Shown here: one piece after another, positions 1-25,065 of the stretch
Layout: every line of letters starts with the position of its first letter
Position numbering within the stretch: position 1 is the first letter of the stretch
NCBI GenBank assembly: GCA_963746975.1
Contig: CAVVDE010000012.1
Coordinates: 66,798-98,797 of the forward strand
Reading direction: 5' to 3'
DNA: 32,000 bases
From: an uncultured Gaiellaceae bacterium
Lineage (GTDB): Bacteria > Actinomycetota > Thermoleophilia > Gaiellales > Gaiellaceae
Translations under genes and position numbers: made by a program
Notes under the pieces: model-generated
What the model was told of the DNA's origin: nothing
The model's input: the letters and a program-made list of their open reading frames with translations, nothing else
The model's database searches: none

Positions 1-1501
<1,501 letters not shown>

Positions 1502-1526
1502 ATCCCGTTCCGCTCCGGCGCACGCG

Positions 1527-1556
1527 CTGCGGAGAAGCCGCAGGCCCGGTGCGGGC
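1527..1556 (+). terminator. two tandem GC hairpins downstream of the cyclase gene (possible U-tract-less terminator)
   Basis: CTGCGG-agaag-CCGCAG (1527-1543) is followed directly by GCCCG-gtg-CGGGC (1544-1556). There is no T-tract, and short stems like these are common by chance in GC-rich DNA. Confidence 0.2.
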
Positions 1557-1612
1557 GTCCTCCCGATGTAGGCTCGAGGCATCCCTGCGAGGGTGAGCCC
1601 GAGGAGGCCTGT

Positions 1613-2749
1613 TTGGACGAGCCCAAACGCGCGACGATCGAGCCCGAGGAGCTGGAGACGCTCGTCGCCGCGCTGCGACGCCGGGGCTACCTCGTCGTGG
1701 GGCCGACCGTGCGCGACGGAGCCATCGTCTACGAGGAGCTCGAGACCGCCGACGAGCTGCCGGTCGGGTGGACGGAAAAACAGGACGCAGCCACGTATCG
1801 ACTCGAGCGCCGCGACGACGAAGCCCGCTTCGGCTATGCGGTCGGGCCGCATTCGTGGAAGCGATTCCTCTTCCCGCCGCGAGTACGGCTCTGGCAAGCG
1901 AAGAGAAACGGCGACGGCGCGCTCGAGGTCGAGGAGGACGCTCCGGACGCGAGACCGCTGGCGTTCCTCGGAGTTCGCTCCTGCGACCTGCACGCGATCG
2001 CGATCCAGGACCGCGTCTTCATCGGCGGCCGGGTCGTGGAGCGTGACTACGCGGCGCGCCGAGCGGGCGCCTTCGTCGTCGCGGCGAACTGCTTCGAGCC
2101 GAGCGGGACGTGCTTCTGCGTCTCGATGGGTACAGGGCCTCGCGCCGAGTCGGGGTACGACCTCGCTCTGACGGAGGTCCTCGAAGGCGGGCACCGCCTC
2201 CTGGTGGAGGTCGGCACGGAGCGCGGCGCCGAGGTCCTGGCCGAGCTCGAGTCTCGGCCCGCGACGACTGCCGATCTCGACGGCGCAGCTCGCGCCGTCG
2301 ACAGCGCGGCCGAGCGCATGGGCCGCCACATGGACGCGCGCGACCTCCGCGACCTCCTCGCCGAGAACCTCGACCACCCGCGCTGGGACGACGTCGCCGA
2401 TCGCTGCCTCACGTGCGGGAACTGCGTTCTCGTCTGCCCCACGTGCTTCTGCTCGACGGTCGAGGACCACACCGACCTTTCGGGCGAGCACGCCGAGCGT
2501 TGGCGCACGTGGGACACCTGCTTCTCCGTCGACCATGCCTACATCCACGGCGGGAGCTTCCGACCGAGCCCCCGCTCCCGCTACAGGCAGTGGATGACGC
2601 ACAAGCTCGGCACGTGGCACGACCAGTTCGGGACATCAGGCTGTGTCGGCTGCGGGCGCTGCATCACGTGGTGCCCGGTCGGTATCGACATCACCGAGGA
2701 GGTCGCCGCGATCCGCGCGACGGGAGGAGACGACGGTGCGACAGCTTGA
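1613..2749 (+). CDS. hyhB: [NiFe]-hydrogenase group-3b-type beta subunit (AsrA-like 4Fe-4S protein)
   Basis: TTG start sits 5 nt after GAGGAGG. Ferredoxin-type motifs [16 protein letters not shown] and [16 protein letters not shown] are present. It is the first gene of a B-G-S-L subunit order. Confidence 0.85.
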
Positions 2750-3200
2750 AGAGATACTCGGCGACGTCCCGTTCCTCGAGGGGATGAGCCAGGAGCAAAT
2801 CGCGCTGCTGGCGGGGTGCGCGTCGAACGTGCACTTCGACGCGGGCGAGGTCGTCTTCCGGGAGGGCGACCAGGCGGACACGTTCTACGTCATCCGCCAT
2901 GGCACCGTTGCGATCGAGCTGCACGCGCCCGCACGCAACGCGATGACGGTGGAGACGATCGAGGCGGGCGAGGTCCTCGGCTGGTCGTGGCTCTTCCCGC
3001 CCTATCGCTCGCACTTCGACGCGCGCGCGCTCTCGAGCGTGCGGGCGACCGCCTTCGACGGAGCGTGCCTCCGCGGCAAGTGCGACGACGACCCCGTGCT
3101 CGGCTACGACCTCGTCAAGCGCTTCGCGCAGGTCTTCACCGAGCGCCTGCACTGGACGAGGCTGCGACTCCTGGACATCTACGGTGACGGCGTCGCCTGA
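2736..3200 (+). CDS. stand-alone cyclic-nucleotide-binding domain protein (154 aa, no HTH), embedded in the hydrogenase operon
   Basis: GTG 2736 follows GGGAGGAGA and overlaps the hyhB stop by 14 nt. The protein reads [27 protein letters not shown]...[18 protein letters not shown]...[25 protein letters not shown]. This shows the beta-barrel and a phosphate-binding-cassette-like GE..G...P.RS....A. It ends about 40 aa after the cassette, so there is no DNA-binding domain. Confidence 0.85.
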
Positions 3201-4014
3201 GCTCGCACTCGCGCCGGGCCCGATGGTGCCCCGGACGTTCACGGTGCAGGAGCGGACGCAGGAGACGGCCGACACGTGGACGCTCGTGCTCGCGCCGCGT
3301 TCGGGCGAGCAACTGGACGTCGCTCCCGGCCAGTTCGTGATGGTCTACGTCTTCGGGATCGGCGAGGTGCCGATCTCGGTGAGCGCCCCGCCGCTCGTGC
3401 TGACCGTGCGCGCGGTCGGAGCCGTCTCGAAGGCGATCTGCGCATGTGCGCCCGGCGAGGTGCTCGGCATTCGCGGCCCCATCGGCAGCGTGTGGCCGAT
3501 CGCGGAGTGCGAGGGGGCGGACGTAGTCGTGATCGCGGGCGGCATCGGCCTCGCGCCGCTCCGCCCAGTCGTGCTCGGTGCGCTCGAGCGGCGCGGGCAC
3601 TACGGCGAAGTCGTCCTCCTCTACGGAGCCAGAACTCCCGGTGACCTGCTGTATACGAAAGAGCTCGAGAGCTGGCGCGACGCCGCCGCCGTCCACACGA
3701 CCGTCGACGCCGCCGGGCCGGAATGGACGGGGAAGGTCGGTTTCGTGCCGCAGCTCCTCCCCGGCGCCGAGTTCGACGCCGACTCGACGACGGCGTTCGT
3801 CTGCGGTCCGGAGATCATGATGCGGCTCAGCGCCGACGCCCTGATCGATCGTGGTGTCCCGCCCGCGCGGATCTACATCTCGCTCGAGCGAAACATGCAG
3901 TGCGGGCTCGGCCACTGCGGCCACTGCCAGCTCGGCCCGACGCTCATCTGCCGCGACGGCCCGGTCTACTCGTACGAGGTCGCAAGGCCGTGGCTGGAGG
4001 TGAGAGAGCTGTGA
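3184..4014 (+). CDS. hyhG: [NiFe]-hydrogenase group-3b-type gamma subunit (AsrB/FNR-like FAD/NAD(P)-binding protein with C-terminal 2Fe-2S)
   Basis: Contains the NAD(P)-fold motif [16 protein letters not shown] and the C-terminal cluster [25 protein letters not shown] 3184 overlaps the upstream gene; ATG 3223 (MVPRTFTV) is an alternative start. Confidence 0.85.
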
Positions 4015-4787
4015 TCGCCGTGAAGACGAAGCCCAAGCTGGCCGTCTGGAAGTTCGCCTCGTGCGACGGCTGCCAGCTGTCGCTGCTCGACTGCGAGGAC
4101 GAGCTGCTCGCGCTGACGAACGAGATCGAGATCGCGTACTTCCTCGAGGCGACGAGCGGCACCGTCGAGGGTCCCTACGACCTCTCCATCGTCGAAGGGT
4201 CGATCACGACCGCGCACGACGCCGAGCGGATCCAGCGCGTCCGCGCCTCCTCGAAGGCGCTCGTCACCATCGGCGCCTGCGCGACCGCGGGCGGGATTCA
4301 GGCCCTGCGGAACTACGCCGACGTCGCGGAGTTCGCGCGCATCGTGTACGCGTCGCCCGAGTACCTCTCGACGCTGGACACGTCGACGCCGATCTCGGCA
4401 CACGTCCCCGTCGACTTCGAGCTGCACGGCTGCCCGATCGACAAGGGCCAGCTGCTCGAGGTCCTGTCGGCATTCCTCCACGGACGGAAGCCCGGCATCC
4501 CGTCGACGAGTGTCTGCACGGAGTGCAAGCGGCGAGGCACCGTCTGCGTGATGGTCGCGCACGGGACGCCGTGCCTCGGCCCCGTCACGCACGCCGGCTG
4601 CGGAGCGCTGTGCCCGTCGTACAACCGCGGCTGTTACGGCTGCTTCGGCCCGAAGGAGACGCCGAATACCGTCTCGCTCACACGCCAGCTCCGCGTCCTC
4701 GGCATGGACGACCGGGGCGTCGAACGGGTGTTCCACACGTTCAACACCGAGGCGCCAGGCTTCAAGGAGGTGCAGGTCGGTGGCTGA
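4011..4787 (+). CDS. hyhS: [NiFe]-hydrogenase small (delta) subunit
   Basis: GTG 4011 overlaps the hyhG TGA as GTGA. The protein reads [27 protein letters not shown]...[16 protein letters not shown]...[46 protein letters not shown]. Confidence 0.9.
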
Positions 4788-6072
4788 GAGGCGAACCATC
4801 AAGACCGACTACCTCGCGCGGGTCGAGGGTGAGGGCGCGATGTCGGTCCGCCTCCGCGACGGCGAGGTCGAGCACGTCGAGCTGCGGATCTTCGAGCCGC
4901 CGCGCTTCTTCGAGGCGCTGCTGCGCGGCCGCTCGTTCATGGAAGCGCCCGACATCACGGCCCGCATCTGCGGCATCTGCCCCGTCGCGTACCAGATGAG
5001 CTCCGTCCAGGCGATGGAGGACGCCTGCGGCGTCGACATCCCGGAGCCGATCCACGCGCTGCGCCGCCTCCTCTACTGCGCCGAATGGATCGAGAGCCAC
5101 GCGCTTCACGTCTACATGCTCCACGCACCGGACTTCCTCGGCTACGCGGGCGCGGTCGAGCTTGCACGGGACGCGCCTGCAGCGGTCGAGCGCGGGCTCG
5201 CGCTGAAGAAAACGGGGAACGAGCTGATGTCGCTCATCGGGGGCCGCGAGATCCACCCGGTCAACGTCCGGGTCGGCGGCTTCTACCGGGCCCCCACCCC
5301 GCGCGAGCTGCGCACCATGGTCGACCCGCTCGAGCGCGCACGAGACGCGGCGCTCGAGACGGTCCGCTGGACGGCCGGCTTCGACTTCCCCGAGCGCGCG
5401 GTCGAGTGCGCGCTCGTCGCGCTCTCGGCTCCCGGCACGTACGCGATCGAGCGCGGCCGCATCGCTTCCGACCAGGGCCTCGACATCGCGGTAGGCGAGT
5501 ACGACGAGCACTTCGTCGAGGAGCACGTCGAGCGCTCGAACGCGCTCCACTCGCGGACGCGCGAAGGGGCCAGCTACCTGTGCGGGCCGCTCGCCCGCTT
5601 CGCCCTCGGCGCCGACCGGCTGTCGCCGCTCGTGCAGGAGGCGGCGCGCGAGGCCGGCGTCGAGGCGCCCTGCCGCGATGCCTTCCGCAGCATCGTCGTG
5701 CGCAGCCTCGAGCTCGTGTATGCCTGCGACGAGGCCCTGCGCATCATCGAGTCCTACGAGGAGCCGGAGGCGCCGTTCGTCCCGGTCGAGCCCGTCGCCG
5801 GTGTCGGCCACGGAGCGACCGAAGCGCCGCGTGGTCTGCTCTACCACCGCTACCGCATCGACGACGAGGGCACGATCCTCGACGCGAAGATCGTCCCGCC
5901 GACGTCGCAGAACCAGCTCGCCATCGAAGAGGACCTCCGCGCGGTCGTCGGGCAGTACGCCGAGTTGCCCGACGACGAGCTCCGCGGGCTCTGCGAGCAG
6001 GCGATCCGGAACTACGACCCCTGCATCTCGTGCGCGACGCACTTCCTCGACCTCGAGGTCGAGCGGCTGTGA
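4780..6072 (+). CDS. hyhL: [NiFe]-hydrogenase large (alpha) subunit
   Basis: AAGGAGG lies 9 nt upstream of GTG 4780. The N-terminal metal motif [10 protein letters not shown] and the C-terminal motif DPCISCATH are present, followed by a 9-aa tail (FLDLEVERL) for endopeptidase cleavage. Both C-terminal Cys are TGC codons, so this is not a NiFeSe form. Confidence 0.95.
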
Positions 6073-13786: not shown

Positions 13787-15431
13787 ATGAGCGAGCACGG
13801 GACGAAGCGAGTCCTCATCGCAGGCGGTGGAGTTGCAGCACTCGAGGCTGCCCTCGCCCTCAGAGAGCTGGCGGCCGACCTCATCGCCGTCGAGCTCCTG
13901 GCGCCGCACGCGACGTTCGAGTATCAGCCGATGTCCGTCGCCGAGCCGTTCGGCCTCGGCGACGTCATGCACCTCGACCTCGATGATCTCGTCGAGGAGA
14001 TCGGAGCGCACCGGATTCCAGCCGGTCTCACCGGCATCGACGCGTGGCGGCACACCGCGCACACGACGACGAACGTCGAGGTGCCGTACGACACGTTGCT
14101 CGTCGCATGCGGCGTGCTGCCGCTGCCTGCGGTTCCGGGTGCGACGACGTTTCGCGGCTCGGTCGACGCGCCGAAGATCGGGCACCTCCTGGAGGAGCTC
14201 GACGCGGGCGACGTGCGCTCGGTCGCATTCGTCATCCCCTGGGGCGCGGTCTGGTCGCTGCCGGCCTACGAGCTCGCGCTGCTGACGGCCGTCCACCTCG
14301 GCGACAGGGGGATCCGTGATGCGCACGTCACGCTCGTGACACCCGAGACGGAGCCGCTCCAGGTCTTCGGGTCGCCGGCGAGCGACGCGATGAGGAGCCT
14401 GCTCGACGCTCGGGGCATCGAGCTGCGTGCCGGCGCCTATGCCGGAGGTTTCGCGGACGGCTCGCTCGAGCTGGTTCCGGGCGGCTCGCTCGCGGTCGAA
14501 CGGGTCGTCGCCCTGCCGAGGCTCGAGGGAGCGCCTCTCGACGGGATTCCGCAGACGCTTGCAGGGTTCATCCCGGTGGACGCCCACTGCCGCGTCCACG
14601 GGCTCGCGAACGTCTACGCAGCGGGCGACATCACGAGCTTCCCGATCAAGCAGGGCGGTCTCGCAGCGCAACAGGCGAACGTCGCGGCCGAGGCGATCGC
14701 GGCCGCGCTCGACGTCTCGATCGAGCCGAGGCCGTTCCAACCGGTTCTCCGAGGGCTGCTGCTGACCGGACGCGAGCCGCGCTACCTTCGCCGCGAGCTG
14801 AGCGGACACGCCGAGCACGAGCCGGTCACGACGTACGAGGCCCTCTGGTGGCCGCCCGCGAAGGTCGTCGGCCGGCACCTCGCACCGTTCCTCGCGCGCG
14901 TCGCCGGAGCCGAGGCACCTGCCGAGATCCCGGCACCCGAGTCGGGATCCGTACCCGTGGAGATCGAGCTCGAACCGAGCACCACCGCACTGTCGGCCGT
15001 CCCACGGCTCTCCCTGGTCGAGCTCGGGCCCGAGGAGGTCGAGATCGCCGACGTCATGGCCGAAGCGGTCGTCGTGGCGCCGGAGGACACGCTCGGCGAG
15101 GTGGCCGAGTACCTCGTCGGCACGGGATCAGACCGCTGCCGCCGTGGCCGAGTACGGCCGCCTCATCGGCATCGTCACGACCTCGGACGTCATTCGCGCG
15201 TCCGCGGCGCGCATCCTGCCGGCTGAGGCGCGTGCCCGGCACTGGATGACCGCGGAGCCCGTCACCGTCTCACCGACCTATCCCGTCTCGGCGGCCGTGA
15301 TGCTCATGGCCGAGTACCGGATCCACCACCTGGTCGTCGTCGACGGCGCACGCGTGGTCGGGATGATCGACGTCGAGGATCTGCGGCAGGGTGCACCGAC
15401 GGCCGGCTCGGAGTTCGAGCGCGTGTACTGA
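13787..15431 (+). pseudogene. SQR-like NAD(P)/FAD-dependent oxidoreductase fused to a CBS-domain pair, interrupted by one frameshift near 15125-15143 (pseudogene or assembly indel)
   Basis: N-terminal Rossmann motif KRVLIAGGGVAALEAALAL, and later VYAAGDITSFPIKQGG. The first CBS motif is split: IADVMAEAVVVAPEDTLGEVAEYLVGTG is in the 13787 frame, and AAVAEYGRLIGIVTTSDVIRA continues in the 15144 frame. The second CBS (WMTAEPVTVSPTYPVSAAVMLMAEYRIHHLVVVDGARVVGMIDVEDL) is intact in the second frame. Confidence 0.75.
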
Positions 15432-15440
15432 GTCGGCGCG

Positions 15441-15743
15441 CTACGAGTCGTCGTCCGGCACGAACGACACCTCGTCGACGTAGCACCAGAACCAGGGCTC
15501 GTACGGCTCGACCGAGCGAATGATCGGATGGCCGGTGTCGCTCGCGTGAGCGCTCGCGTGCCGGTTCGGAGAGTTGTCGCAGCAGAGGATCCGGCCACAG
15601 CTCGTGCAGCGCCGAAGGTGCACCCACCAGCCGTCGATCTCGAGACAGTCCTCGCAGCCGGGGATGTTCTCCGGCACGTCGGCGAACTCGATCGTGTCCA
15701 GGTGGCTGCAGGCCGGAGGCATGACGTCGGACGGTACCTGCAC
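15441..15743 (-). CDS. UBP-type zinc-finger (zf-UBP) domain protein
   Basis: CSHL...CEDCLEIDGWWVHLRRCTSCGRILCCDNSPNRHASAHASDTGHPIIRS..EPWFWCYVD matches the zf-UBP Cys/His pattern. The start is GTG 15743 or, perhaps more likely, ATG 15722 (MPPACSHL). Confidence 0.85.
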   Translation of the reverse strand: MQVPSDVMPPACSHLDTIEFADVPENIPGCEDCLEIDGWWVHLRRCTSCGRILCCDNSPNRHASAHASDTGHPIIRSVEPYEPWFWCYVDEVSFVPDDDS

Positions 15744-15920: not shown

Positions 15921-16610
15921 TTGCCGCCCGTGCAGTCCGCGTTCGACGTCCGGCCGCTCGACGGCTCCGCGCTCGCGCTCGAGACGCGCGTCCTCGCAGC
16001 GGCGGAGTCGGCAGTCGTCGGCGACGAATCGAGAGACACACTGCTGTTCGTCGCCCACGGCGCCGGGTCGCTTGCCCTCGACGGCGCGAGTCACGCGCTC
16101 GCGACATCGACGGCGGCCCTCGTGCTCGCAGGAGAGACCGCGACCGTCTCGGCCGAGGACGAGCTCGAGCTCGTCGTCGCGACGGTCGGCGGCGACGTGG
16201 ACCTGCACGCGCCGATGGGACCACGCGACGTCGTCACCTCACTCGAAGACGCCGACGAACAGAAGGCGACGGGCGATCGCTCGTTCGAGATCCTCTTCGG
16301 GCCGCACAACGGCTGCACGCGAGCGACCCTCTTCGCCGGCTTCATCCCTCCTGGCACGGCGCCGTGGCATTACCACCTGTACGACGAGATCGTGTGGGTT
16401 CCCGAGGGGCCGGGTCGGTTGCACCTACAGCAGGGCGACGAACCGCTCGGGCCGGGGTCGGCGTTCCGGCTGCGCCCGCGCCAGGTGCACATCGTCGAGA
16501 ACGCGAGCTCGAGCGAGATGACGATCATCGGCGTGTTCACGCCGGCCGGAAGCCCGTCGGCCGCCTACCTCACGGCCGACGTCGCAGCCGAGTACCGCAT
16601 CGCGGGATAG
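15921..16610 (+). CDS. cupin-domain protein (two-barrel layout; C-terminal barrel carries the metal-site-like motif)
   Basis: GTAPWHYHLYDEIVWVPEGPGRLHL...GPGSAFRLRPRQVHIVEN resembles the cupin motifs G(x)5HxH...E and G(x)5P..G...H..N. The start is TTG 15921 or GTG 15930. Confidence 0.7.
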   Translation: MPPVQSAFDVRPLDGSALALETRVLAAAESAVVGDESRDTLLFVAHGAGSLALDGASHALATSTAALVLAGETATVSAEDELELVVATVGGDVDLHAPMGPRDVVTSLEDADEQKATGDRSFEILFGPHNGCTRATLFAGFIPPGTAPWHYHLYDEIVWVPEGPGRLHLQQGDEPLGPGSAFRLRPRQVHIVENASSSEMTIIGVFTPAGSPSAAYLTADVAAEYRIAG

Positions 16611-16614
16611 CGCC

Positions 16615-17667
16615 GTGGCGCTCTCGATCCCGGTCACGTGGAGCGACGCGCACCGACTCCACGCCCCGGCGACCGCGGTGTGGGTCGGCGTCCCGATCGA
16701 CGCCGACGAGCTCCCCGAGCGAGCAGAGTTGATCCGCTCGGCACTCGCGGAGGCCGGCGCTCCGGTCGTCGACGCCGTCCCGCACTCGGACGACGCGCTC
16801 CTCGCCGTGCACGACGCCGGGCTCGTGGAGTTCCTGCGCACGGCGTGGGAGAACTGGCAGGCGGGCGGGATGCCGGACGAGGCAGCGCAGCCCGACGTCG
16901 TCGGCTACATCTACCCGACCGCCGGGCTCCTCGGTGAGGTCGAGCCGCACATGCCGACGGCCCTCTCCGCGCGCACCGGCGCCTGGTCCTTCGACACGAT
17001 GACCGCCGTGGGGCAGGGAACATGGGAGGCCGCGCGAGGTGCGGTCGACGCCGCTCTCACGGCAGTCGACCTCGTTCTCGAGGGAGCACCCGCTGCGTAC
17101 GCGTGCTGCCGTCCGCCCGGCCACCACGTGACGCGATCGGCCTTCGGCGGATCCTGCTACGTGAACAATGCGGCCGTGGCAACGCAGTACCTCCGCGACC
17201 GGGGCAAGACGCGCGTTGCGATCGTCGACGTCGACGCCCATCACGGCAACGGGGCGCAGACGATCTTCTGGGAACGCGACGACGTCTTCACCGGATCCGT
17301 CCACGTCGATCCGGGCGCGGGCTGGTTCCCACACTTCCTCGGATTCGCCGACGAGACCGGCACCGCCAACCTCAACCTCCCACTCCCGCCGGGTTGCGGC
17401 GACCCGATCTGGCTCGCGGCGGTCGACCGCCTCGTCGCAACCGCCGAGGAGCACGAGGTCGACGCGCTCGTCGTCGCGCTCGGCGTCGACGCCGCGGCCG
17501 GCGACCCGAACTCGCCGCTCGCCGTGACCGAGGACGGGTTCCGCAAGGCGGGCCGCCGACTGGGCTCGCTCGACGTCCCGACCGTCCTCGTGCAGGAGGG
17601 CGGCTATGTGCTGGAGACGATCGGACCGCTCGTCCGCGCGACCCTCGAGGGTTTCGAGAGCGCGTGA
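16615..17667 (+). CDS. histone-deacetylase-family (arginase/deacetylase superfamily) amidohydrolase, acetylpolyamine/acetoin-utilisation type
   Basis: CCRPPGHHV...VAIVDVDAHHGNGAQTIFWERDDVFTGSVH...ALGVDAAAGDP...VLVQEGGY gives the catalytic HH, the DxDxHHGNG zinc site and the terminal EGGY. Confidence 0.9.
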   Translation: MALSIPVTWSDAHRLHAPATAVWVGVPIDADELPERAELIRSALAEAGAPVVDAVPHSDDALLAVHDAGLVEFLRTAWENWQAGGMPDEAAQPDVVGYIYPTAGLLGEVEPHMPTALSARTGAWSFDTMTAVGQGTWEAARGAVDAALTAVDLVLEGAPAAYACCRPPGHHVTRSAFGGSCYVNNAAVATQYLRDRGKTRVAIVDVDAHHGNGAQTIFWERDDVFTGSVHVDPGAGWFPHFLGFADETGTANLNLPLPPGCGDPIWLAAVDRLVATAEEHEVDALVVALGVDAAAGDPNSPLAVTEDGFRKAGRRLGSLDVPTVLVQEGGYVLETIGPLVRATLEGFESA

Positions 17668-17993
17668 GCACGCCGCCTCGCCGCCCGGTGCTCCTGTACG
17701 ACTCCGGCTGACGCTTTTGCCGCTGGGCGGCGCGTGTCGTCGTCCGCCTCGATCGCCGGGGGCGGCTCGCCGTCCTGCCTCTCGACGACCGCGTCGCGTC
17801 CGCGCTTCTCGCCTCGCTGGCCGAGCACGAGCGGTTCGCCAGCTGGCGGCTCGTCAAGACGGACGGCTCGACACTCGGCTACGCGGTCGTCAGAGGGCGA
17901 GTGCCGGACGCGCTCTACCGGCTCGTGGCCGACCACCGGAAGTTGCTCGGCCGGTTGGTGCCCGACGGTCCCGCTCCCCGCCGCTTTCCGTAA
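17664..17993 (+). CDS. DCC1-like (DUF393) thiol-disulfide oxidoreductase with in-frame TGA at 17709-17711 in place of the first Cys of CxxC; candidate selenoprotein, or nonsense pseudogene
   Basis: GTG 17664 overlaps the deacetylase TGA as GTGA. The frame reads VSTPPRRPVLLYDSG[TGA]RFCRWAARVVVRLDRRGRLAVLPLDD...GRLVPDGPAPRRFP then TAA at 17991-17993. The LLYD-x-x-C-x-x-C plus basic helix plus R.GRL..xPL pattern is the DCC family N-terminus. G/C-ending codons continue across the TGA. The ORF track misses it because each half is under 60 aa. Confidence 0.65.
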
Positions 17994-17996
17994 CCC

Positions 17997-18789
17997 TCAG
18001 CCGAACCAGTCGCGCAGCGGGAGGCTCTGGCCGAGCGCCGAGAAGTCGCCGTCTTCCCGGATCGCCTTGGCGGCGTCCGCGAACGCCGCGACCGCAACCC
18101 AGGTCAGGCCGCCTCCCACGCTGATCCGCTGCGCGCCGGCATCGGCGATCTCGGAGAGCGTCAGGCCACCGAGCGCGAGAACGTTGACAGGACGCGTGAC
18201 CGCGTCGCACACCTCTCGTATCTCCGACGTCGTCCTGAGCCCGGGCGCGTAGAGCACGTCCGCGCCCGCCGCCTCGTACGCCTGCAGGCGTGCGATCGTG
18301 TCCGTGAGATCGGGATTGCCGCGGATGTGGTTCTCGGCTCGTGCGGTCAGCGTGAACGGGAAGCCCAGGCCACGAGCGGCCTCGACGGCCGCCGCGACTC
18401 GCTCGGTTGCCTCGCCGACCTCGTACAGGCGACCCGAGGGGTCGTAGTCCTCGATCGAGCCGCCGACCGCGCCCGCTTCGGCGACGCGGGCGATCGCAGC
18501 TCGCTGTCGCTGCCGGCGAGCTCCCGTATCCGTTCTCCAGGTCAACCGAGACAGGGAGGTCGGTCGCTCGATCCAGCGCGGCAGTGTGCTCGGCGACCTC
18601 GTCGAGCGTCGCTCCGCTGTCGAGCCGGCCGAGCGTGAACGCGAAGCCCGAGCTCGTCGTCGCCAGCGCCTCGAAACCGAGGGCCTCGAGCACTCGGGCC
18701 GACCCGACGTCCCACGGGTTCGGGATCACGAATGGCGCGCCCTCGTGGAGGGCGCGGAAGGCCTCCGCTTTCTGCTCCTGTCTCGTCAC
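17997..18789 (-). pseudogene. isocitrate lyase/PEP mutase family protein (2-methylisocitrate lyase / carboxyvinyl-carboxyphosphonate phosphorylmutase-like) with one frameshift near 18495-18510
   Basis: The N-terminal part, from ORF 17890..18789, is MTRQEQKAEAFRALHEGAPFVIPNPWDVGSARVLEALGFEALATTSSGFAFTLG...PVSVDLENGYGSSPAAT. The continuation, in ORF 17997..18545, is AIARVAEAGAVGGSIEDYD...TLTARAENHIRG...ARLQAYEAAGADVLYAPGL. The two pieces are contiguous in the family fold but lie in different frames. Confidence 0.8.
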
Positions 18790-19748
18790 CGGATCTCGAG
18801 CACGACCTTGCCACGCTTTCCGCGCTCGTGCACGCGAGCGAACGCCGCCGGGGCGTCGGCGAGCGGGAACACCGCGTCGATCGCGGGCCGAATCCGGCCC
18901 GCCTCGATCAGCCGCGCGAGCTCTTCGAGCTGGTCGCGCGACTGCTCGACGACGAAGTAGAGCGCGGCGATGTCGTCTCGTCCGTGCTCCGGCGGTTCCT
19001 CCGCCACGGACACGATTCGCCCTCCCGGCCGCACTACCTCGACGGCGGACGCCAGCGCATCGCCTCCGACGGTGTCGAAGACGAGATCGACGGGCTCGAT
19101 GGACTCCTCGAGGCGCTCAGCTCTGTCGACGACCTCCTCGGCGCCGAGCTCACGCACCAGCTCGAGATCGGCGGCAGACGCCGTCCCGGTCACGTGTGCG
19201 CCGCGCTCGTGCGCGAGCTGGGTCGCGAAGTGACCAACACCGCCGGCGGCACCGAGAACGAGGACGCGCCGGCCCGCCTCCAGCCGACCGTGGTCGAACA
19301 GGCCCTGCCACGCGGAGAGCGCGCCCATCGGCACTGCGGCAGCCTCGACGTGACTCAGGCTCCCCGGCTTGGCGGCGAGGACGCTCGACGGAACCGCGGC
19401 GTACTCGCGGGCGACGCCGTCGCGGTCGAACGGCGTGAGTGCGTAGACCTCGTCGCCGACTCGCAGGTCGGTGACGTCGGATGCGATCTCGCTGACGACG
19501 CCAGAGACCTCGTACGACGGGACCGCGGGGAGCCGATCGACCGGCCACTCGAGCTCGTCCCGCGTGATCGCAGCGGCGTGAACCTCGACGAGGACCTCGC
19601 CCGGCCCGGGGTTCGGAATCGCGAGCTCCTCGAGCGCAACACGCGGCGTGGGCTCGCCGCCGTGCAGGCGTACCGCCCGCATGACGCCGCTCCCGCCCGT
19701 CGGCGATCCGACGTCTCCCGCGCTCTCGAACTCCCTGACATCGCGCAT
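18786..19748 (-). CDS. NADP-dependent oxidoreductase, medium-chain dehydrogenase/reductase (quinone oxidoreductase-like) family
   Basis: MRAVRLHGG...GPGEVLVEVHAAAITRDELEW...VLVLGAAGGVGHFATQLA...RGKVVLEI. ATG 19748 has a strong GAGGAGGGG upstream; ATG 19682 (MRAVRL) is an alternative start. The stop overlaps the GTG start of the PEP-mutase gene as GTGA. Confidence 0.9.
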   Translation of the reverse strand: MRDVREFESAGDVGSPTGGSGVMRAVRLHGGEPTPRVALEELAIPNPGPGEVLVEVHAAAITRDELEWPVDRLPAVPSYEVSGVVSEIASDVTDLRVGDEVYALTPFDRDGVAREYAAVPSSVLAAKPGSLSHVEAAAVPMGALSAWQGLFDHGRLEAGRRVLVLGAAGGVGHFATQLAHERGAHVTGTASAADLELVRELGAEEVVDRAERLEESIEPVDLVFDTVGGDALASAVEVVRPGGRIVSVAEEPPEHGRDDIAALYFVVEQSRDQLEELARLIEAGRIRPAIDAVFPLADAPAAFARVHERGKRGKVVLEIR

Positions 19749-19784
19749 GTCCCCTCCTCAGTCAACTCGATCTGCCTCGCTGGC

Positions 19785-19827
19785 AAGTATCTTATTAGAA
19801 AGTATCCTTCGCGGAAGTATACTGCCG
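19785..19827. promoter_or_regulatory. three AAGTAT(C/A) direct repeats at 15-bp spacing plus a near-perfect 16-bp palindrome; candidate MarR operator in a divergent promoter
   Basis: AAGTATC occurs at 19785 and at 19800, and AAGTATA at 19815. CGGAAGTATACTGCCG (19812-19827) is palindromic in 7 of 8 pairs around GTATAC. This is the only AT-rich stretch between the MDR gene and marR. Confidence 0.4.
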
Positions 19828-19833
19828 CGAACG

Positions 19834-20346
19834 ATGCCGGACGAGCAGGAGCTGGACCACATGGACGCGATCCTCACGCAGTGGCGGCGGGAGCGGCCGG
19901 ACGTCGACGTCACGGCGCTCGGCATCATGGGTCGCCTCTTCCGCGCGGCGCAGCTCACAGACGCCGCGCTCGCGGGCGGCATCGCGCGGCACGAGCTGCA
20001 GCCAGGGTGGTTCGACCTCCTCGCCGCGCTCAGGCGCGCCGGACGGCCCTTCGAGCTGAACCCGACGCAGCTCATGGCCGCCACCATGCTCTCCTCCGGC
20101 GGCATGACGAAGCGACTCGACCGGCTGGAGGGCGCCGGGCTCGTCGAGCGCCGTCCGGACCCGAGCGATCGCCGTGGCACGCTCGTCCGTCTCACGAAGA
20201 AGGGCCAGGAGACCGTCGACGCCGCGCTGGTCACGCATGTCGGGAATGAGGAGCGACTGCTGCAAGCACTGTCCGCAAGCGAGCGCCGCACGCTCGACGG
20301 GCTCCTGCGCAAGCTCCTCCTCGAGCTCGAAGCGGCGTCCGACTAG
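19834..20346 (+). CDS. MarR-family transcriptional regulator
   Basis: ATG 19834 gives MPDEQELDHMDAILTQWRRERPDVD...LNPTQLMAATMLSSGGMTKRLDRLEGAGLVERRPDPSDRRGTLVRLTKKG, showing the MarR winged-helix with the DRR wing. Confidence 0.9.
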   Translation: MPDEQELDHMDAILTQWRRERPDVDVTALGIMGRLFRAAQLTDAALAGGIARHELQPGWFDLLAALRRAGRPFELNPTQLMAATMLSSGGMTKRLDRLEGAGLVERRPDPSDRRGTLVRLTKKGQETVDAALVTHVGNEERLLQALSASERRTLDGLLRKLLLELEAASD

Positions 20347-21509
20347 CGCGCCGCCCGCAGCTCCGCGCGGAACTCCCGCAACCGAGCCGTCTCGAGCGCG
20401 ATCGAGAAGGCAAGGATCACGATGACCACGCCGAGCGTCACGATCGCATCGGCGCCGTCGAGCAGCACCGCGACCACGAGGACGAGCGCGGCCGCGGCCA
20501 GGCGCTCCCAGGCGACCCGGCGCACGACCCGAAAGCGCATGAGCGCGAAGCCGCACAGGAAGAACGCGATTCCGAGACCGAGCGCCCAGCGGCCCGGCTT
20601 CGACAGCGGGTCGAGCGGATGCTCGAGCGTCTTCTTCGCCGCGACCGCGTACAAGATGATGCCGAGCACGAGCGGATAGTGAAAGTACGTGAAGACGTCC
20701 CGTGCGAGAACCCCCCGGGCAGGTCCGGACGCTCGTTTCAGCGAACGCTCCGCGGCGACAGCGGTGAAGTCGAAGTACGCCCACCACAGGGCAGCCACTC
20801 CGGCGAACGCGATCACGACCGAGACCGCGTACGTTGCATCGCGATCGAGGCCGGCAGTTCCGACGCCGATCGCGACGATCGACTCGCCGAGAGCGATGAT
20901 CACGATCAGTGCGAAGCGCTCGGCGAAGTGGGACGGTGACACGTGCCAGTCCGCTCGCGCGACGGTCAGCGTCCCGACGACGTCGATGACGAGCGAGGCG
21001 AGCCACACCCAGGCGCGGTAGTCCGCGTCGACGAAGCCGCCGGCGAGTGCGACCGCCGCAGCGATGAGGAACCAGGGCGCCAGGCGCAGCGTCGCCCGCA
21101 GCGTTTCGGGCTCGTTTCGGACGCCCCATGAGTACAGCGTCGAATTCAGCACGCGGACGACGAAGTAGGCGACCGCGAACCAGGCGGCTTCGTCTTGGAA
21201 GGCGTGCGGAACTGCGAGGGCCATGAAGAAGCCCGCGACCATGGCGGCGAAGATGATGAGGCGGGTCACCGCGTTCTCGACGTCGATCGCATTCGTCATC
21301 CACGCGTACGCCGACCACGCCCACCACACCATCGCGAGGACGAGCGCGGCGCGGGCAAACCCCTGCAGGCTCGGGTCCTCGAGGATGAGCGCGGTCACCT
21401 GCGTGAACGCGAAGACGAAGACGAGGTCGAAGAAGAGCTCGAGGTAGCTGGTCTTCCGCTCTTCCTCCTCGACGTTCGGCTCGACGACGAGGCGCTCGAT
21501 GTCGGTCAT
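20343..21509 (-). CDS. ltrA: low-temperature-requirement protein A (LtrA) family membrane protein
   Basis: ATG 21509 gives MTDIERLVVEPNVEEEERKTSYLELFFDLVFVFAFTQV..., the LtrA N-terminal signature, followed by multiple transmembrane segments. The start overlaps the upstream peptidase stop as ATGA. The longer 771-aa ORF is an Arg-rich artefact. Confidence 0.85.
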   Translation of the reverse strand: MTDIERLVVEPNVEEEERKTSYLELFFDLVFVFAFTQVTALILEDPSLQGFARAALVLAMVWWAWSAYAWMTNAIDVENAVTRLIIFAAMVAGFFMALAVPHAFQDEAAWFAVAYFVVRVLNSTLYSWGVRNEPETLRATLRLAPWFLIAAAVALAGGFVDADYRAWVWLASLVIDVVGTLTVARADWHVSPSHFAERFALIVIIALGESIVAIGVGTAGLDRDATYAVSVVIAFAGVAALWWAYFDFTAVAAERSLKRASGPARGVLARDVFTYFHYPLVLGIILYAVAAKKTLEHPLDPLSKPGRWALGLGIAFFLCGFALMRFRVVRRVAWERLAAAALVLVVAVLLDGADAIVTLGVVIVILAFSIALETARLREFRAELRAAR

Positions 21510-23083
21510 GTGAGCGTGACGGCCCGGGCAAGAGATTCGACCGAGAGCGACGATCCCGACGCCTGCTCGACGAGACGATCCCAGCGCGCCGACTCGCCGG
21601 CGGCGAAGAGCCGCTCGCGGAGGAGCGCGCCCGCCTCCGGGCGGTCGACGATCCCGCCCACCTCGGCCTCGAGCGCCGCCGCCAGCTGGAGCGCGACGAT
21701 CGCCCCGTAGAGATAGGTGTGGTAGTAGACGGGCGAGACGGCGATGTGGATCTTCGCCGCCCAGTCCGGCGCTCGGCGGCCGTCGGGTGGAGTCACTCCC
21801 TGGTACCGCCGCACGAGCTCCCACCAGAGCGCGTCGAGGTCTCCGTCGGGGTCGGCATACAGCGCGCGCTCGAACGTGTTCATGACGAGGACCCAACGCG
21901 TGAAGACGAGAAGCTCGGCGGCTCGCGCCGCGAGCAGGCGGCCCTCCAACTCGGCGCCTTCGCCCGCGCTCAGCCCGAGAATGCGCTCGAGCCACTCGCG
22001 CCGCCATGCAAGCGCGCCGCAGAGCAGCGCCGACGCCTCCGTGGCGACGAGGTGCGTCGAACGCAGCGTCCACGGAAGGTCGTCGCTCAAGCCGAGGTCG
22101 TAGACGCCGTGACCAAGCTCGTGGAGCATCGTGTCCGCCGAGTCGTGCGTCTCGGCGACGTTCGCCAGGATGCGCACGTCGTCTCGCCGGTCGATGTCGA
22201 TGCAGAACGCGTGCTGGTTCTTGCCGGCCCGCGGGTAGAGGTCGCTCCGGGCGATGATCCCCTCGGCATCGAGCCCGATCCCCTCGATCGTGCGGCGGGC
22301 GAGCGCCACGATGTCCTTCCCCTCCAGATACGGGTCGAGATCGACGGCCGAGTCGGGCGGCGCCTCCTGGAAGAACGGGTCGGCGTAGTTCCACGGCCGG
22401 AGCTCCCCCACCGAGCAGCCGAAGCGTGTGGCAAGCCGCTCGTCGAGCGCGCTCTTCCACCTCGCGAACGGCTCGGCGGTGACTCGATCGCATTCGCCGA
22501 GCGTCACCGCCAGCCTGGTCTCGTCGAGTTCGTCGGTCGACAGGCTGAGTGCGAACCAGTCGCGATGGCCGAGCGAGCGCGCGGCCACGTTGCGTAGGCG
22601 AGCGAGCTCGCGGACGTCGTCGGCCACTTCGGCGCCGACCGTCTTCGACGCCTCCCACGCCTCCCGCCGCTCCCCGGGATCGTCGCTCCGCCGCAGGATC
22701 CGCTTGATCTCGGTGTCCCCCACCTCGTCGCCGCCGACCACCCCCCGGTGTCGCGAGAAACGCAGGTCGACGTATGTCTCGAGCTCGACGATCCGCGACC
22801 GGAGCCCGTCCGGCACCTGGCGCCGAACCATGGCGTTGTGCAGGAGGTCGAGCCGGCGTCGATCCTGCCCGCCCGCGCCGTTACGGCGAGCAGCCTCGAC
22901 CGATGCGAAGAGCGCGCGATCGGCGAGCGCGTCCGACCACGCCAGTTCCGCATGCGTGCGCCTCTCGGCATTCTCCTCCGTCGCCTCGACCTGCGAGTTC
23001 CACCAGCCGAGGTTGGACTCGACCGCGAGCGGCGCGAGCCGGGCCTCGACCTCGTCGGCGATCCTGGACGGATCCGCCGTCAC
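21506..23083 (-). CDS. HExxH zinc metallopeptidase (M3/M2-like oligopeptidase or carboxy-dipeptidase type)
   Basis: GTG 23083 overlaps the upstream TGA as GTGA. Contains ...WWNSQVEATEENAERR...DTMLHELGHGVYD...TEASALL...SPVYYHTYLYG. This gives HELGH plus a downstream E, and the layout looks gluzincin-like. The exact MEROPS family is not resolvable by eye. Confidence 0.8.
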   Translation of the reverse strand: MTADPSRIADEVEARLAPLAVESNLGWWNSQVEATEENAERRTHAELAWSDALADRALFASVEAARRNGAGGQDRRRLDLLHNAMVRRQVPDGLRSRIVELETYVDLRFSRHRGVVGGDEVGDTEIKRILRRSDDPGERREAWEASKTVGAEVADDVRELARLRNVAARSLGHRDWFALSLSTDELDETRLAVTLGECDRVTAEPFARWKSALDERLATRFGCSVGELRPWNYADPFFQEAPPDSAVDLDPYLEGKDIVALARRTIEGIGLDAEGIIARSDLYPRAGKNQHAFCIDIDRRDDVRILANVAETHDSADTMLHELGHGVYDLGLSDDLPWTLRSTHLVATEASALLCGALAWRREWLERILGLSAGEGAELEGRLLAARAAELLVFTRWVLVMNTFERALYADPDGDLDALWWELVRRYQGVTPPDGRRAPDWAAKIHIAVSPVYYHTYLYGAIVALQLAAALEAEVGGIVDRPEAGALLRERLFAAGESARWDRLVEQASGSSLSVESLARAVTLT

Positions 23084-23592
23084 GCCGCCGTCGACTGGAC
23101 GAGGCTCACGACCCGGATACCCGTCCGGAAGCGATCGAACGACTGCTTCCAGGTGTACCCGGGCCAGCGGTACTCCACCGCTCCGCGCACGACGTCGTAC
23201 ACCGCGGTGTAGAGCGTTCCCATTCCCCACCGGTACGCACCGGAGAAGAGCGGCGGGTAGTCGTAGTTGCGGACGAGCATCGGGCTCGCCGCGCGTCCAG
23301 ACGCCCTGCGAGCAGCCCGGAGAGGTACGAGGGAGGCCGCCACATCGAGAGCATCCGGGCCTCGAGGTCGCCGCCGCCCGCGAGCTCGCACAGCCGCTCG
23401 CCACGTGGGGACGAGCTCCGGCATGTGCTCGCGGAGCATGCGCGCGGACTCGGCGTAGACTCGCACGCGCTCGTTCGCCCTCGTGCAGGAACCACGGGCG
23501 GTAGCGCGGCCAGTGGTTATCGAAGAGCGCCTGCCACTTGCTCGCCCGGCAGCAGCCTCTTCGACGGCCTCGAAGGTCAGCTCGAGGCTCAC
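23080..23592 (-). pseudogene. remnant of a C45-family (acyl-CoA:6-APA acyltransferase-like, autoproteolytic) gene, split over three frames and apparently truncated
   Basis: Pieces in order: VSLELTFEAVEEAAAG, then KWQALFDNHWPRYRPWFLHEG, then ANERVRVYAESARMLREHMPELVPTW, then ERLCELAGGGDLEARMLSMWRPPSYLSG, then CSQGVWTRGEP, then MLVRNYDYPPLF... They alternate among the three minus-strand frames. The family assignment comes from my recollection of the G|CS nucleophile context and the xRNYDY motif. Only about 170 codons are present, whereas I recall this family being about twice that length. Confidence 0.5.
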
Positions 23593-25065
23593 AGCATCTT
23601 GAAGGAGAAGGGCTCGGGCGGCGGGAGCGGCGTCGCGAGCGGAGGTGGGACGCCCTGGAACTGCGCCTTGATCCCCGAGATCCAGAGCGAGCGCCGCTCG
23701 GTGAGCTCGTGGTCGTCGGTCTGCAGACGGCCGCGTGGTCACGAGGATCCCGAGATCGGCTCCGGGGTAGCGGAACTGTCCCTCCGCCGGCGATGCGGAG
23801 GTAGAAGGCCTCGTCCTCGCTCGGCGACGGTGTGCCAGTCGGTCTCGCGGCGGACGAAGCGGATTCCTCCGGGCGCCTTCGGATCGAGACGCCAGACACC
23901 GGAGCGCGGCGCATGCGGTGATCAGCTCGACGTCGTCGTCGGTCTGCTTGAGGATGAACTGGCTCCACTCGTCGACGGCACCCGGGTGCGCCCACGCCTC
24001 GTTCAGCGCGGCGACGTCGATCTCGTACTCGACGTCGGCGAACTCGATGAGATGGAAGAGGAAGAGCGGCATGTCGCCGTACGCAACGGCGGTGACGTTC
24101 GTCATGGAGCTCGCCCCGGTGACGCGCGGGTTGAGCTCCCGAGGTAGAGCTCGCCCGAGTCGACGTCGGCGAGGAAATCGAGCTCGAAGTAGCCGAGGTA
24201 GCCCTCCTGTCGCAGGCGGTCGCCCATCAGCCGGGTGTATTCACGAGCGAGCGAGCGTTGCCGCTCGGTGAGCGCCGTCGCGAAGACGTCGTTGCCGCAC
24301 CAGCCGCCGCCGTACGGCGTGAGCTCGGGGAAGCCGGTGAGCTCGGTCATGAGCGGACCGACGAGAGTTCCGTGCCGCGTGATGACACCCTCGATCGCGG
24401 CCTCGCAGCGGGTCGATGCGCTTCATGACCTTGAGGTCGTGATCGACGAGCTCGCAGCGTGCGCGTCCCAGTCCGCGGGCGGTCGCGACGAAGAACGTCG
24501 TCTGGCCGGAGTCGCCGTACGGGGTCTGCACGACGAGGTTCTGGCCGAGATCCGCAGCCGAGAGCGAGCTTGCAGCAGGTCGCCGTACGAGTCGGCGCGA
24601 CCGAGGACGTTGGGGACGCTCGGCACGCCGGCCTCGTCGGCGAGCCGCGTCGTCTCGATCTTCGAGTCGAGCCGCGTGCGGAGCGCCGCGGAGGGGAAGG
24701 CGAGCTCGAGCCCGGCCTCCTCGGCGAGCCGCTCGGTCTCCTCGTCGAACATGAGGAAGACCGCCTTGCCGTGACCGTCTCCGCGATGAAGTCGTGCACG
24801 TCCTTGTGGGCGAGGAGGTAGTTGCAGATCTCCTCGATCGACTCGAAAGCCGGCGGTCGTGGTACGTCGGCACGAAGACGTTGGGGTGGTACCCGTCGAA
24901 CGAGTCGTAGTAGTTGACGTAGCGGAAGGTCGGGATCCAGCGGTCGATCCCGAGGAGGTTGAAGGCCGTCGCCGAGACGAAGTAGACGGGTGTCGTCGCC
25001 GTGCGGAAGAAGCGGCGGATCTCCGAGATGCTCTGGAGCGGCCGGGCCGTCGCACGGTCGCTCAT
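23589..25065 (-). pseudogene. ATP-grasp ligase (PGM1-like, with pre-ATP-grasp N-terminal domain) broken by at least 9 frame switches
   Basis: ATG 25065 overlaps the M20 TGA as ATGA. Recognisable consecutive pieces are: MSDRATARPLQSISEIRRFFRTATTPVYFVSATAFNLLGIDRWIPTFRYVNYYDSFDGYHPNVFVPTYHD; PAFESIEEICNYLLAHKDVHDFIA; GDGHGKAVFLMFDEETERLAEEAGLELAFPSAALRTRLDSKIETTRLADEAGVPSVPNVLGRADSYGDLLQ; LSAADLGQNLVVQTPYGDSGQTTFFVATA...ELVDHDLKVMKRIDPLR; AAIEGVITRHGTLVGPLMTELTGFPELTPYGGGWCGNDVF...GYLGYFELDFLADVDSGELYLG; ELNPRVTGASSMTNVTAVAYGDMPLFLFHLIEF...DEWSQFILKQTDDDVELITA; APRSGVWRLDPKAPGGIRFVRRETDWHTVAE; EDEAFYLRIAG; GQFRYPGADLGILVT; RGRLQTDDHELTERRSLWISGIKAQFQGVPPPL...FSFKML then TGA. The length of 1477 nt is not a multiple of 3. 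Confidence 0.8.

Follow-up and report, generated by a model that had tools for sequence, protein, structure and literature searches.

Is the TGA triplet that interrupts a short reading frame in the genome of an uncultured Gaiellaceae bacterium the mark of a broken gene, or is it a codon for selenocysteine (Sec)? The frame lies at positions 17664-17993 of the stretch of 32,000 nucleotides analysed here, hereafter the window (GenBank assembly GCA_963746975.1, contig CAVVDE010000012.1, positions 66,798 to 98,797 of the forward strand). As judged from comparative sequence evidence, it very probably encodes a selenoprotein, a DCC1-like thiol-disulfide oxidoreductase, in which the UGA at 17709-17711 is almost certainly decoded as Sec. 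This reading is directly supported by the alignment of the active-site motif, the conservation of the TGA among relatives, the restriction of a downstream hairpin to TGA forms and the presence of Sec machinery in the lineage. The coordinates of the features discussed are collected in Table 1.

Which protein does the frame encode, and where in it does the TGA fall? The preliminary description had read the frame from a GTG start, coupled as GTGA to the stop of a deacetylase gene, through to a TAA stop, and had assigned it to the DCC1/DUF393 family with the TGA at the first cysteine of a CxxC motif. The frame was found as described, its GTG start sharing the four letters GTGA with the TGA stop of the deacetylase gene; given this overlap, the two genes are probably co-transcribed. 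Its translation comprises VSTPPRRPVLLYDSG up to the TGA at 17709-17711, continues with RFCRWAARVVVRLDRRGRLAVLPLDD and finishes with LGRLVPDGPAPRRFP; the segment following the TGA thus reads RFCRWAARVVV and the last residues before the TAA at 17991-17993 are PRRFP. The start position agrees with that of the homologues (MTPRRPVLLYD, MSSPRRPVLLYD).

The assignment to the family was confirmed by a profile search. When the stop was replaced by Cys, PF04134 was recovered with E=2.7e-8 and a score of 35.5 bits, which exceeds the gathering score of 27.8. Residues 10-63 are aligned to positions 1-55 of the 113 profile positions and the C-terminal half of the profile is left unmatched. The closest Cys-containing homologues (65-78% identity) are 107-110 amino acids long and carry a precomputed PF04134 domain; by this comparison, the short length of the predicted protein is normal for a subfamily of 107-110 residues and points to no deletion. 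The alignment of the window protein with 58 full-length Cys homologues (59 sequences) places the stop in the column of the invariant C16, as does the profile. C19 is invariant as well and D13 nearly so, and the active-site motif in the window reads D13-S-G-U16-R-F-C19.

Is the TGA a peculiarity of this assembly? The initial protein search returned full-length Cys homologues together with dozens of matches of 66, 73 or 83 amino acids, which had neither the N-terminus nor a Pfam domain. In five contigs with such shortened calls, the frame runs upstream through a TGA at the same column (PVLLYDxG-TGA-RFCRF/W). Gene callers shorten the TGA-form genes to 66-85 amino acids, which are annotated solely as 'hypothetical protein', and the genes have been overlooked so far for this reason. 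A first motif search recovered TGA in 31 of 60 loci, the window and the five initial contigs included, and L034 added one more. In a third subfamily (LLYSGG-U-RFCRWAARVVA...CWWLVLRDG), 12 of 14 loci have TGA. The species-representative scan used one genome per species (GTDB representatives) and comprised 73 loci; the metagenome scan of soil data used two patterns, one of them demanding a Cys codon at the column, and yielded 32 additional TGA loci.

When the window, the representative genomes and the metagenome loci are pooled, with the window counted among the TGA loci, the column of the first Cys is occupied by TGA in 76 loci (53 distinct sequences of 42 nt), by TGC or TGT in 71 and by TAA or TAG in none. 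The TGA carriers belong to Gaiellaceae, Gaiellales, Solirubrobacterales and other Actinomycetota, to Gemmatimonadota and to Acidobacteriota/Vicinamibacterales. TGA-form relatives reach down to ~45% protein identity, and downstream of the UGA the identity ranges from 45 to 87%. In a neighbour-joining tree the Sec and Cys forms are interspersed. Several of the TGA loci are Illumina assemblies (k141 SMAG bins, a palsa bin and IMG contigs), which excludes a long-read sequencing error.

Is the TGA translated through? Within the window's subfamily, 22 distinct TGA-form genes were compared: the residues that precede the UGA (R-P-V-L-L-Y-D) are invariant and their third codon positions show 0.9-1.7 bits of entropy. 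This pattern indicates purifying selection on the pre-UGA peptide, which would serve no purpose were translation to end 7 codons further on. Upstream of the UGA, all 69 distinct TGA-form genes possess an ATG, GTG or TTG in the same frame without intervening stop, at a distance of 11-22 codons in 68 of them. Moreover, C19 sits between the UGA and any possible internal restart and is therefore useful only if the UGA is read through. TGA is also the true terminator in 31 of the 69 genes, and the deacetylase gene of the window ends in it too. Since TGA still serves as a real terminator there, the genetic code of the lineage is the standard one, and recoding is restricted to the specific site.

Recoding of UGA as Sec in bacteria calls for attention to the RNA just downstream, where a selenocysteine insertion sequence (SECIS) would reside. 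The window forms a SECIS-like hairpin in this region (Table 1). Its conserved core consists of 17727-17732 paired with 17738-17743 (6 bp), and in the window the stem extends to 8 bp and has no bulge. Hairpin alignments were started at the TGA, and RNAalifold was run separately on the TGA and the Cys sets. De novo, a single consensus hairpin was obtained from 39 distinct genomic TGA sequences, with columns 19-24 paired to columns 30-35 around a loop at 25-29; the 28 Cys sequences gave no structure. The six core pairs are formed in 233 of the 234 cells of the TGA alignment. A compensatory exchange of G-C for C-G occurs in L001 by two synonymous changes, exchanges of G-C or G-U for A-U are seen in L034, L058 and L070, and L100 also shows a change to A-U.

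The full 6-bp stem with a G[G/U] loop is present in 52 of 53 distinct TGA sequences versus 7 of 64 Cys sequences (Fisher p = 3e-24, a merely indicative value as the sequences are related), and G[G/U] in the loop is common to all 53. The preliminary description had proposed to look among orthologues for TGC or for TGA with a downstream hairpin: alongside the TGA of the 76 loci, the hairpin is kept in the TGA forms and mostly missing from the Cys forms. In those Cys forms that neighbour Sec forms on the tree (L013, L014, L015, L024 and L039), the stems are broken. Codon usage shows a constraint of its own. Four-fold-degenerate third positions hold 0.39 bit in codons 10-18 after the UGA versus 1.27 bit across the gene (Mann-Whitney p = 1.3e-4), and this low synonymous variation is confined to the hairpin stretch. 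Both Ala codons are GCG (in 22 and 21 of 22 sequences), and Arg is encoded by the rare CGU in 20 of 22, which supplies the U of the loop. Taken alone, the window hairpin folds at -12.4 kcal/mol (z = -2.84), and 2 of 200 shuffles fold as well. These patterns argue that the hairpin is specific to the UGA forms and under selection at the RNA level.

Does the hairpin resemble what SelB is expected to bind? PMC13188914 gives the bacterial SECIS (bSECIS) model of Zhang and Gladyshev as a loop of 3-9 nt, a stem of 4-16 bp, a G with G or U after it at the first loop positions, a spacing of 16-37 nt from the UGA and a minimum free energy (MFE) of at most -7.5 kcal/mol. With a loop of 5 nt, a stem of 6-9 bp, G[G/U], a spacing of 21 nt and -12.4 kcal/mol, the hairpin lies within every one of these limits, and the search for a SECIS element after the UGA that the preliminary description had advised was thus successful. 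The two folds drawn there by eye fared less uniformly: both exist and the second lies in the right region, but the pairing supported by comparison is a different one (17725-17732 with 17738-17745 and a 5-nt loop).

The first of these folds (17719-17731) is mostly paired and shows no compensatory change, and 9 of 39 sequences lack its closing pair. It does not conform to the bSECIS model: only 12 nt separate the loop from the UGA, and the UUC loop of Phe-type sequences contains no G. The Cys-Arg and Ala-Ala codons probably give rise to this alternative hairpin as a by-product. A larger fold that includes it (17710-17738) was likewise rejected: no pair changes on both sides, the lower stem is paired in only 75%, and spacing and loop fall outside the model. 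The second fold, with its 3' arm shifted by 3 nt, a bulged U and an 8-nt loop, was dropped since 56% pairing is obtained at +3 versus 87% at 0.

Could the organisms concerned insert Sec at all? The sel genes were sought by tblastn with SelA, SelB and SelD of E. coli, and tRNA-Sec by ARAGORN. A tRNA-Sec (anticodon tca) was found in L050 (Solirubrobacterales), 2 kb downstream of the TGA-form gene and on the same contig (7666-7758). In L071, tRNA-Sec, selB and selA stand together (1311-5405) upstream of the DCC1-like gene, and in L042, L046 and L069 selD lies ~8.8 kb upstream of it (at ~1180-2190). The latter four loci belong to metagenome-assembled genomes (MAGs) of Gaiellaceae or Actinomycetes and have the DCC1-like gene in its Cys form. 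A search with the SelA fragment of L071 gave 5906 matches at E<1e-10, of which the best are 70-79% identical; several bear the name L-seryl-tRNA(Sec) selenium transferase [Gaiellaceae bacterium]. The lineage therefore possesses Sec machinery, and tRNA-Sec, one of its four genes, is located beside a TGA-form gene. Neither sel genes nor tRNA-Sec were found in the 72 metagenome loci. SelD was considered as a second selenoprotein and discarded, the relatives having a Cys-type SelD.

Some observations on these loci are relevant to mention on their own. DCC1-like genes recur within 2-9 kb of sel genes (L042, L046, L050, L069 and L071), a proximity that could reflect a functional connection with selenium or redox metabolism or could be due to chance. 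Ahead of the TGA-form gene of L050, the region 3748-5246 reads by eye as an ArsR-type regulator with a rhodanese-like C-terminus and an arsenite-methyltransferase-like class I S-adenosylmethionine-dependent methyltransferase, with an open reading frame (ORF) resembling the metallo-beta-lactamase fold on the opposite strand; read in this way, the neighbourhood suggests a sulfur, arsenic or selenium redox context. Nearly all Gaiellaceae-like SelA calls span 230-315 amino acids, whereas SelA of E. coli has 463, and contigs several hundred kb long make no exception. The genes may be fragmented, or their N-terminal domain may be absent or called as a separate gene.

Several results weigh against the selenoprotein assignment. 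The 32-kb window harbors no tRNA and no selA, selB, selD or tRNA-Sec, and none of the 120 SelA matches compared could be placed on a TGA-form contig. On the RNA side, the 52 nt that follow the UGA in the window are no more stable than their shuffled versions (z = +1.09), and their MFE favours the alternative hairpin; fold stability by itself was given up as evidence on account of this value. Covariation among the 39 sequences is modest, with 4 of 9 pairs changing on both sides and 29 of 500 shuffles matching the observed score, because most stem positions never vary, the nearly invariant stem being built of Ala-Ala-Arg-Val-Val/Ala codons. Some Cys forms (L031, L056, L069, L071 and L075) retain the full stem and the G[G/U] loop. 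Part of the hairpin is therefore due to the GC-rich Ala, Arg and Val codons, and the hairpins of these five Cys forms may be either SECIS remnants of a recent Sec-to-Cys conversion or a product of codon usage. Lastly, no Rfam SECIS or tRNA-Sec match was obtained in the whole window at the gathering threshold or in 17600-17900 at E<=10, a result which is uninformative because the bacterial SECIS families of Rfam are narrow.

What else could the TGA be? A decaying gene with a nonsense mutation or an assembly error, in keeping with the other lesions of the window, would suit the provenance of the data: the window and its closest relatives are long-read MAG-type assemblies, the adjacent phosphoenolpyruvate (PEP) mutase gene is split and the genes of L003 are fragmented. 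The chance that this is the explanation is nevertheless close to negligible. TGA occupies the column in 76 loci from many species, some of them sequenced by Illumina, and neither TAA nor TAG ever takes its place. In addition, the frame is intact and under purifying selection on both sides of the TGA, and the other lesions are indels. The simple change from TGC to TGA, which the preliminary description had retained as a real alternative, is contradicted by this conservation. Termination at the UGA followed by synthesis of a shortened protein from an internal start, the upstream part being a leader peptide or regulator, is at first sight encouraged by automatic annotation, which calls such ORFs of 66-85 amino acids in many relatives. 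Yet the called starts vary between relatives, and the window has no in-frame ATG, GTG or TTG after the UGA until near the end of the gene. Conservation at the protein level extends over the segment between the UGA and the called starts (R-F-C-R-W/F-A-A-R) and over the upstream beta-1 strand, and a product without beta-1 and the CxxC would miss the core of the fold. We regard an internal start as highly improbable.

A further explanation accepts the read-through and disputes its product. Near-cognate tRNA-Trp or tRNA-Cys might read the UGA, stimulated by the hairpin, to give W/C-x-x-C. Read-through of one kind or another is demanded by the conservation, and the Sec machinery is known from relatives of the window's genome. 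The UGA, however, stands at the classic site of Sec/Cys exchange, and the hairpin fits SelB-type bSECIS rules including the G[G/U] loop. A tRNA-Sec adjoins a TGA-form gene and sel genes are common in the lineage. Trp in place of the nucleophile would destroy the motif, and insertion of Cys leaves no reason to maintain a costly UGA. On balance, insertion of a residue other than Sec is very unlikely.

How would a Sec-containing product be built and work? An AlphaFold model was made for P0002, a Cys homologue 78% identical to the window protein (predicted local distance difference test 78, predicted template-modelling score 0.69). It adopts the topology beta1-alpha1-beta2-alpha2-beta3-beta4-alpha3, and the CxxC (residues 15-18) is positioned at the N-terminus of helix 1 (16-28). 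This location is that of the attacking Cys in thioredoxin-fold oxidoreductases. A Foldseek search against the PDB returned nearly exclusively thioredoxin (Trx), glutaredoxin (Grx) or DsbE structures, none of them significant (best E=0.066, template-modelling score, TM, ~0.4), and a sequence search of the PDB retrieved no solved relative. According to a review (PMC7598583), the founding member of the family, DCC1 of Arabidopsis, carries a DxxCxxC motif and acts as a thiol-disulfide oxidoreductase on CA2, which it reduces through direct interaction. We infer that the product of the window gene would be a UxxC reductase with Sec as the nucleophile and C19 resolving the selenenylsulfide.

The proposed sequence of events comprises decoding and catalysis. 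A ribosome that arrives at the UGA (17709-17711) would encounter the hairpin at 17725-17745, which is formed by codons of helix alpha-1 (W-A-A-R-V-V-V) and is predicted to recruit SelB together with Sec-tRNA(Sec). Sec would then be inserted in place of termination; SelB binding and selenium incorporation are thus predictions that derive from sequence. In the product, which would have a thioredoxin-like fold, D-x-x-U-x-x-C would stand where the first helix begins. There, Sec would replace the attacking Cys and C19 would resolve the selenenylsulfide. Such an enzyme may be a more reactive reductant than its Cys paralogues, as the example of Sec-containing Trx and Grx suggests.

Table 1. Positions, in window coordinates, of the proposed selenoprotein gene, its RNA elements and its upstream neighbour.
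Feature	Position	Strand	Remarks
DCC1-like gene, probable selenoprotein	17664..17993	+	complete; 109 residues; PF04134; start GTG 17664, stop TAA 17991-17993
In-frame UGA, proposed Sec codon U16	17709..17711	+	aligns with first Cys of CxxC
TGC, second (resolving) Cys C19 of UxxC	17718..17720	+	invariant across homologues
SECIS-like hairpin	17725..17745	+	inside coding sequence; UGA-to-loop spacing 21 nt
Hairpin, 5' arm	17725..17732		GGGCGGCG
Hairpin, apical loop	17733..17737		CGUGU
Hairpin, 3' arm	17738..17745		CGUCGUCC
Alternative hairpin GCCGC-UGG-GCGGC (first fold of the preliminary description)	17719..17731	+	mutually exclusive with the 17725-17745 hairpin
Histone-deacetylase-family gene	16615..17667	+	upstream neighbour; PF00850, E=3.3e-62

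Does the genomic surrounding disclose a partner? The deacetylase gene is the upstream neighbour in L002, L003 and L004 as well, and in 9 of the 62 loci scanned. The genes in this position vary, with a methyltransferase in 11 loci, a cupin in 10 and the deacetylase in 9, and a conserved operon partner was rejected on these grounds; the context gives no hint at a substrate. The pairing with the deacetylase is limited to the sub-clade of the window. The order of genes in the window is zf-UBP (- strand, 15441-15743), cupin (+ strand, 15921-16610), deacetylase and the Sec-DCC gene; farther on, the PEP mutase (- strand) is followed, in 18786-23995, by a zinc-dependent alcohol dehydrogenase (- strand), MarR, LtrA (- strand) and an M3 peptidase (- strand). 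This order is mostly common to the Gaiellaceae contigs L003 and L004, MarR being called only in L003 and the M3 peptidase only in L004, and the window is placed in Gaiellaceae because of this agreement.

The window also contains damaged genes. On the minus strand, convergent with the selenoprotein gene, a gene of the PEP-mutase/isocitrate-lyase family is split by a frameshift into overlapping ORFs: its N-terminal part is found in the ORF 17890-18789, and PF13714 positions 84-239 are found in the ORF 17997-18545. The same gene is intact (262-263 amino acids) in L002 and L004, and the split looks like a long-read indel error and not like decay. The closest related contigs are long-read MAG assemblies with similar gene fragmentation, for example L003. 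The preliminary description had noted many gene lesions in the window that are indels; the PEP-mutase frameshift is one of them, and such indels are typical long-read errors. Upstream, the Pyr_redox_2 ORF at 13787-15226 (+ strand) has an Arg/His-rich tail and is overlapped by an ORF at 15144-15431 which appears by eye to be of the CBS type; the overlap (~15100-15431) may stem from an indel that splits one fused gene. Among the relatives, the N-terminus of P0104 (108 amino acids) is encoded in a different frame, and in L055 and L070 the frame is lost towards the C-terminus. These three come from long-read MAG contigs, and the frame changes fit indel errors.

Is a Sec-containing member of this family already known? 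NCBIfam release 20 has no selenoprotein model that matches, the only hit being TrbB at E=0.06. The May 2026 review that lists all known and predicted prokaryotic selenoprotein families (PMC13188914) has no entry for PF04134, DCC or DUF393 in its Table 1, and other selenoproteome papers do not mention the DCC/DUF393 family. In the open-access literature nothing was found that links selenoproteins with DUF393, DCC or YuxK; an earlier mention elsewhere is possible. The preliminary description was likewise aware of no Sec-containing DCC-family protein, in agreement with these sources. We rate the Sec-DCC protein as a selenoprotein family new to the catalogue but of a well-known kind, namely a Sec/Cys pair at the first CxxC position of a thioredoxin-like protein. 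Beyond the single locus, it is likely that DCC1-like/DUF393 proteins include a large undescribed Sec branch (DxxUxxC) with its own coding-embedded SECIS, distributed over Gaiellaceae, Solirubrobacterales, Gemmatimonadota and Acidobacteriota and subject to repeated Sec/Cys switching.

If this is true, Sec forms, mis-annotated as hypothetical proteins of 66-85 amino acids, would make up about half of all close homologues from soil data, and selenium use would be common among some of the most abundant uncultured soil Actinomycetota. The prokaryotic selenoproteome would gain a family that is shortened or missed in every automatic annotation, and dozens to hundreds of mis-called genes would be put right by a model built for this family. 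Sec would be decoded in a widespread redox protein by Gaiellaceae and related soil lineages, groups of high abundance with hardly any cultured members. The interspersed forms would provide a natural series of Sec/Cys switches with matching gain and loss of the SECIS, useful for studies of SECIS versus protein constraints. Furthermore, Sec marks the catalytic nucleophile and would thereby offer a handle on the function of bacterial DCC1-like proteins.

How does the proposed system compare with known ones? The RNA element shares the layout of bacterial SECIS elements of the E. coli fdhF type: a stem-loop within the coding sequence just 3' of the UGA, with a small apical loop presenting G followed by G or U. 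Its sequence, in contrast, is unrelated to the SECIS families of Rfam, and SelB binding is putative. On the protein side, the closest parallel is given by the UxxC selenoproteins of the thioredoxin fold (Trx, Grx, DsbA-like, thiol:disulfide interchange and peroxiredoxin-like proteins), which have Sec in place of the N-terminal nucleophilic Cys at the start of helix 1, as is predicted for the Sec-DCC protein; abundant Cys homologues and a repeated Sec/Cys interchange are common to both. The Sec-DCC protein nonetheless belongs to a separate sequence family, and its structural matches to Trx, Grx and DsbE are weak (E>0.06, TM ~0.4). Its hosts are aerobic soil Actinomycetota (Gaiellaceae, Solirubrobacterales), Gemmatimonadota and Acidobacteriota. 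With the DCC1-like/DUF393 family itself (PF04134; DCC1 of Arabidopsis, 'DCC family thiol-disulfide oxidoreductase YuxK'), it shares the profile, the N-terminal motif of the DxxCxxC type and the length of the bacterial subfamily of 107-110 amino acids. What distinguishes the window gene from these relatives is the UGA that takes the place of the first Cys codon (DxxUxxC) and the SECIS-like hairpin embedded in the codons of helix 1.

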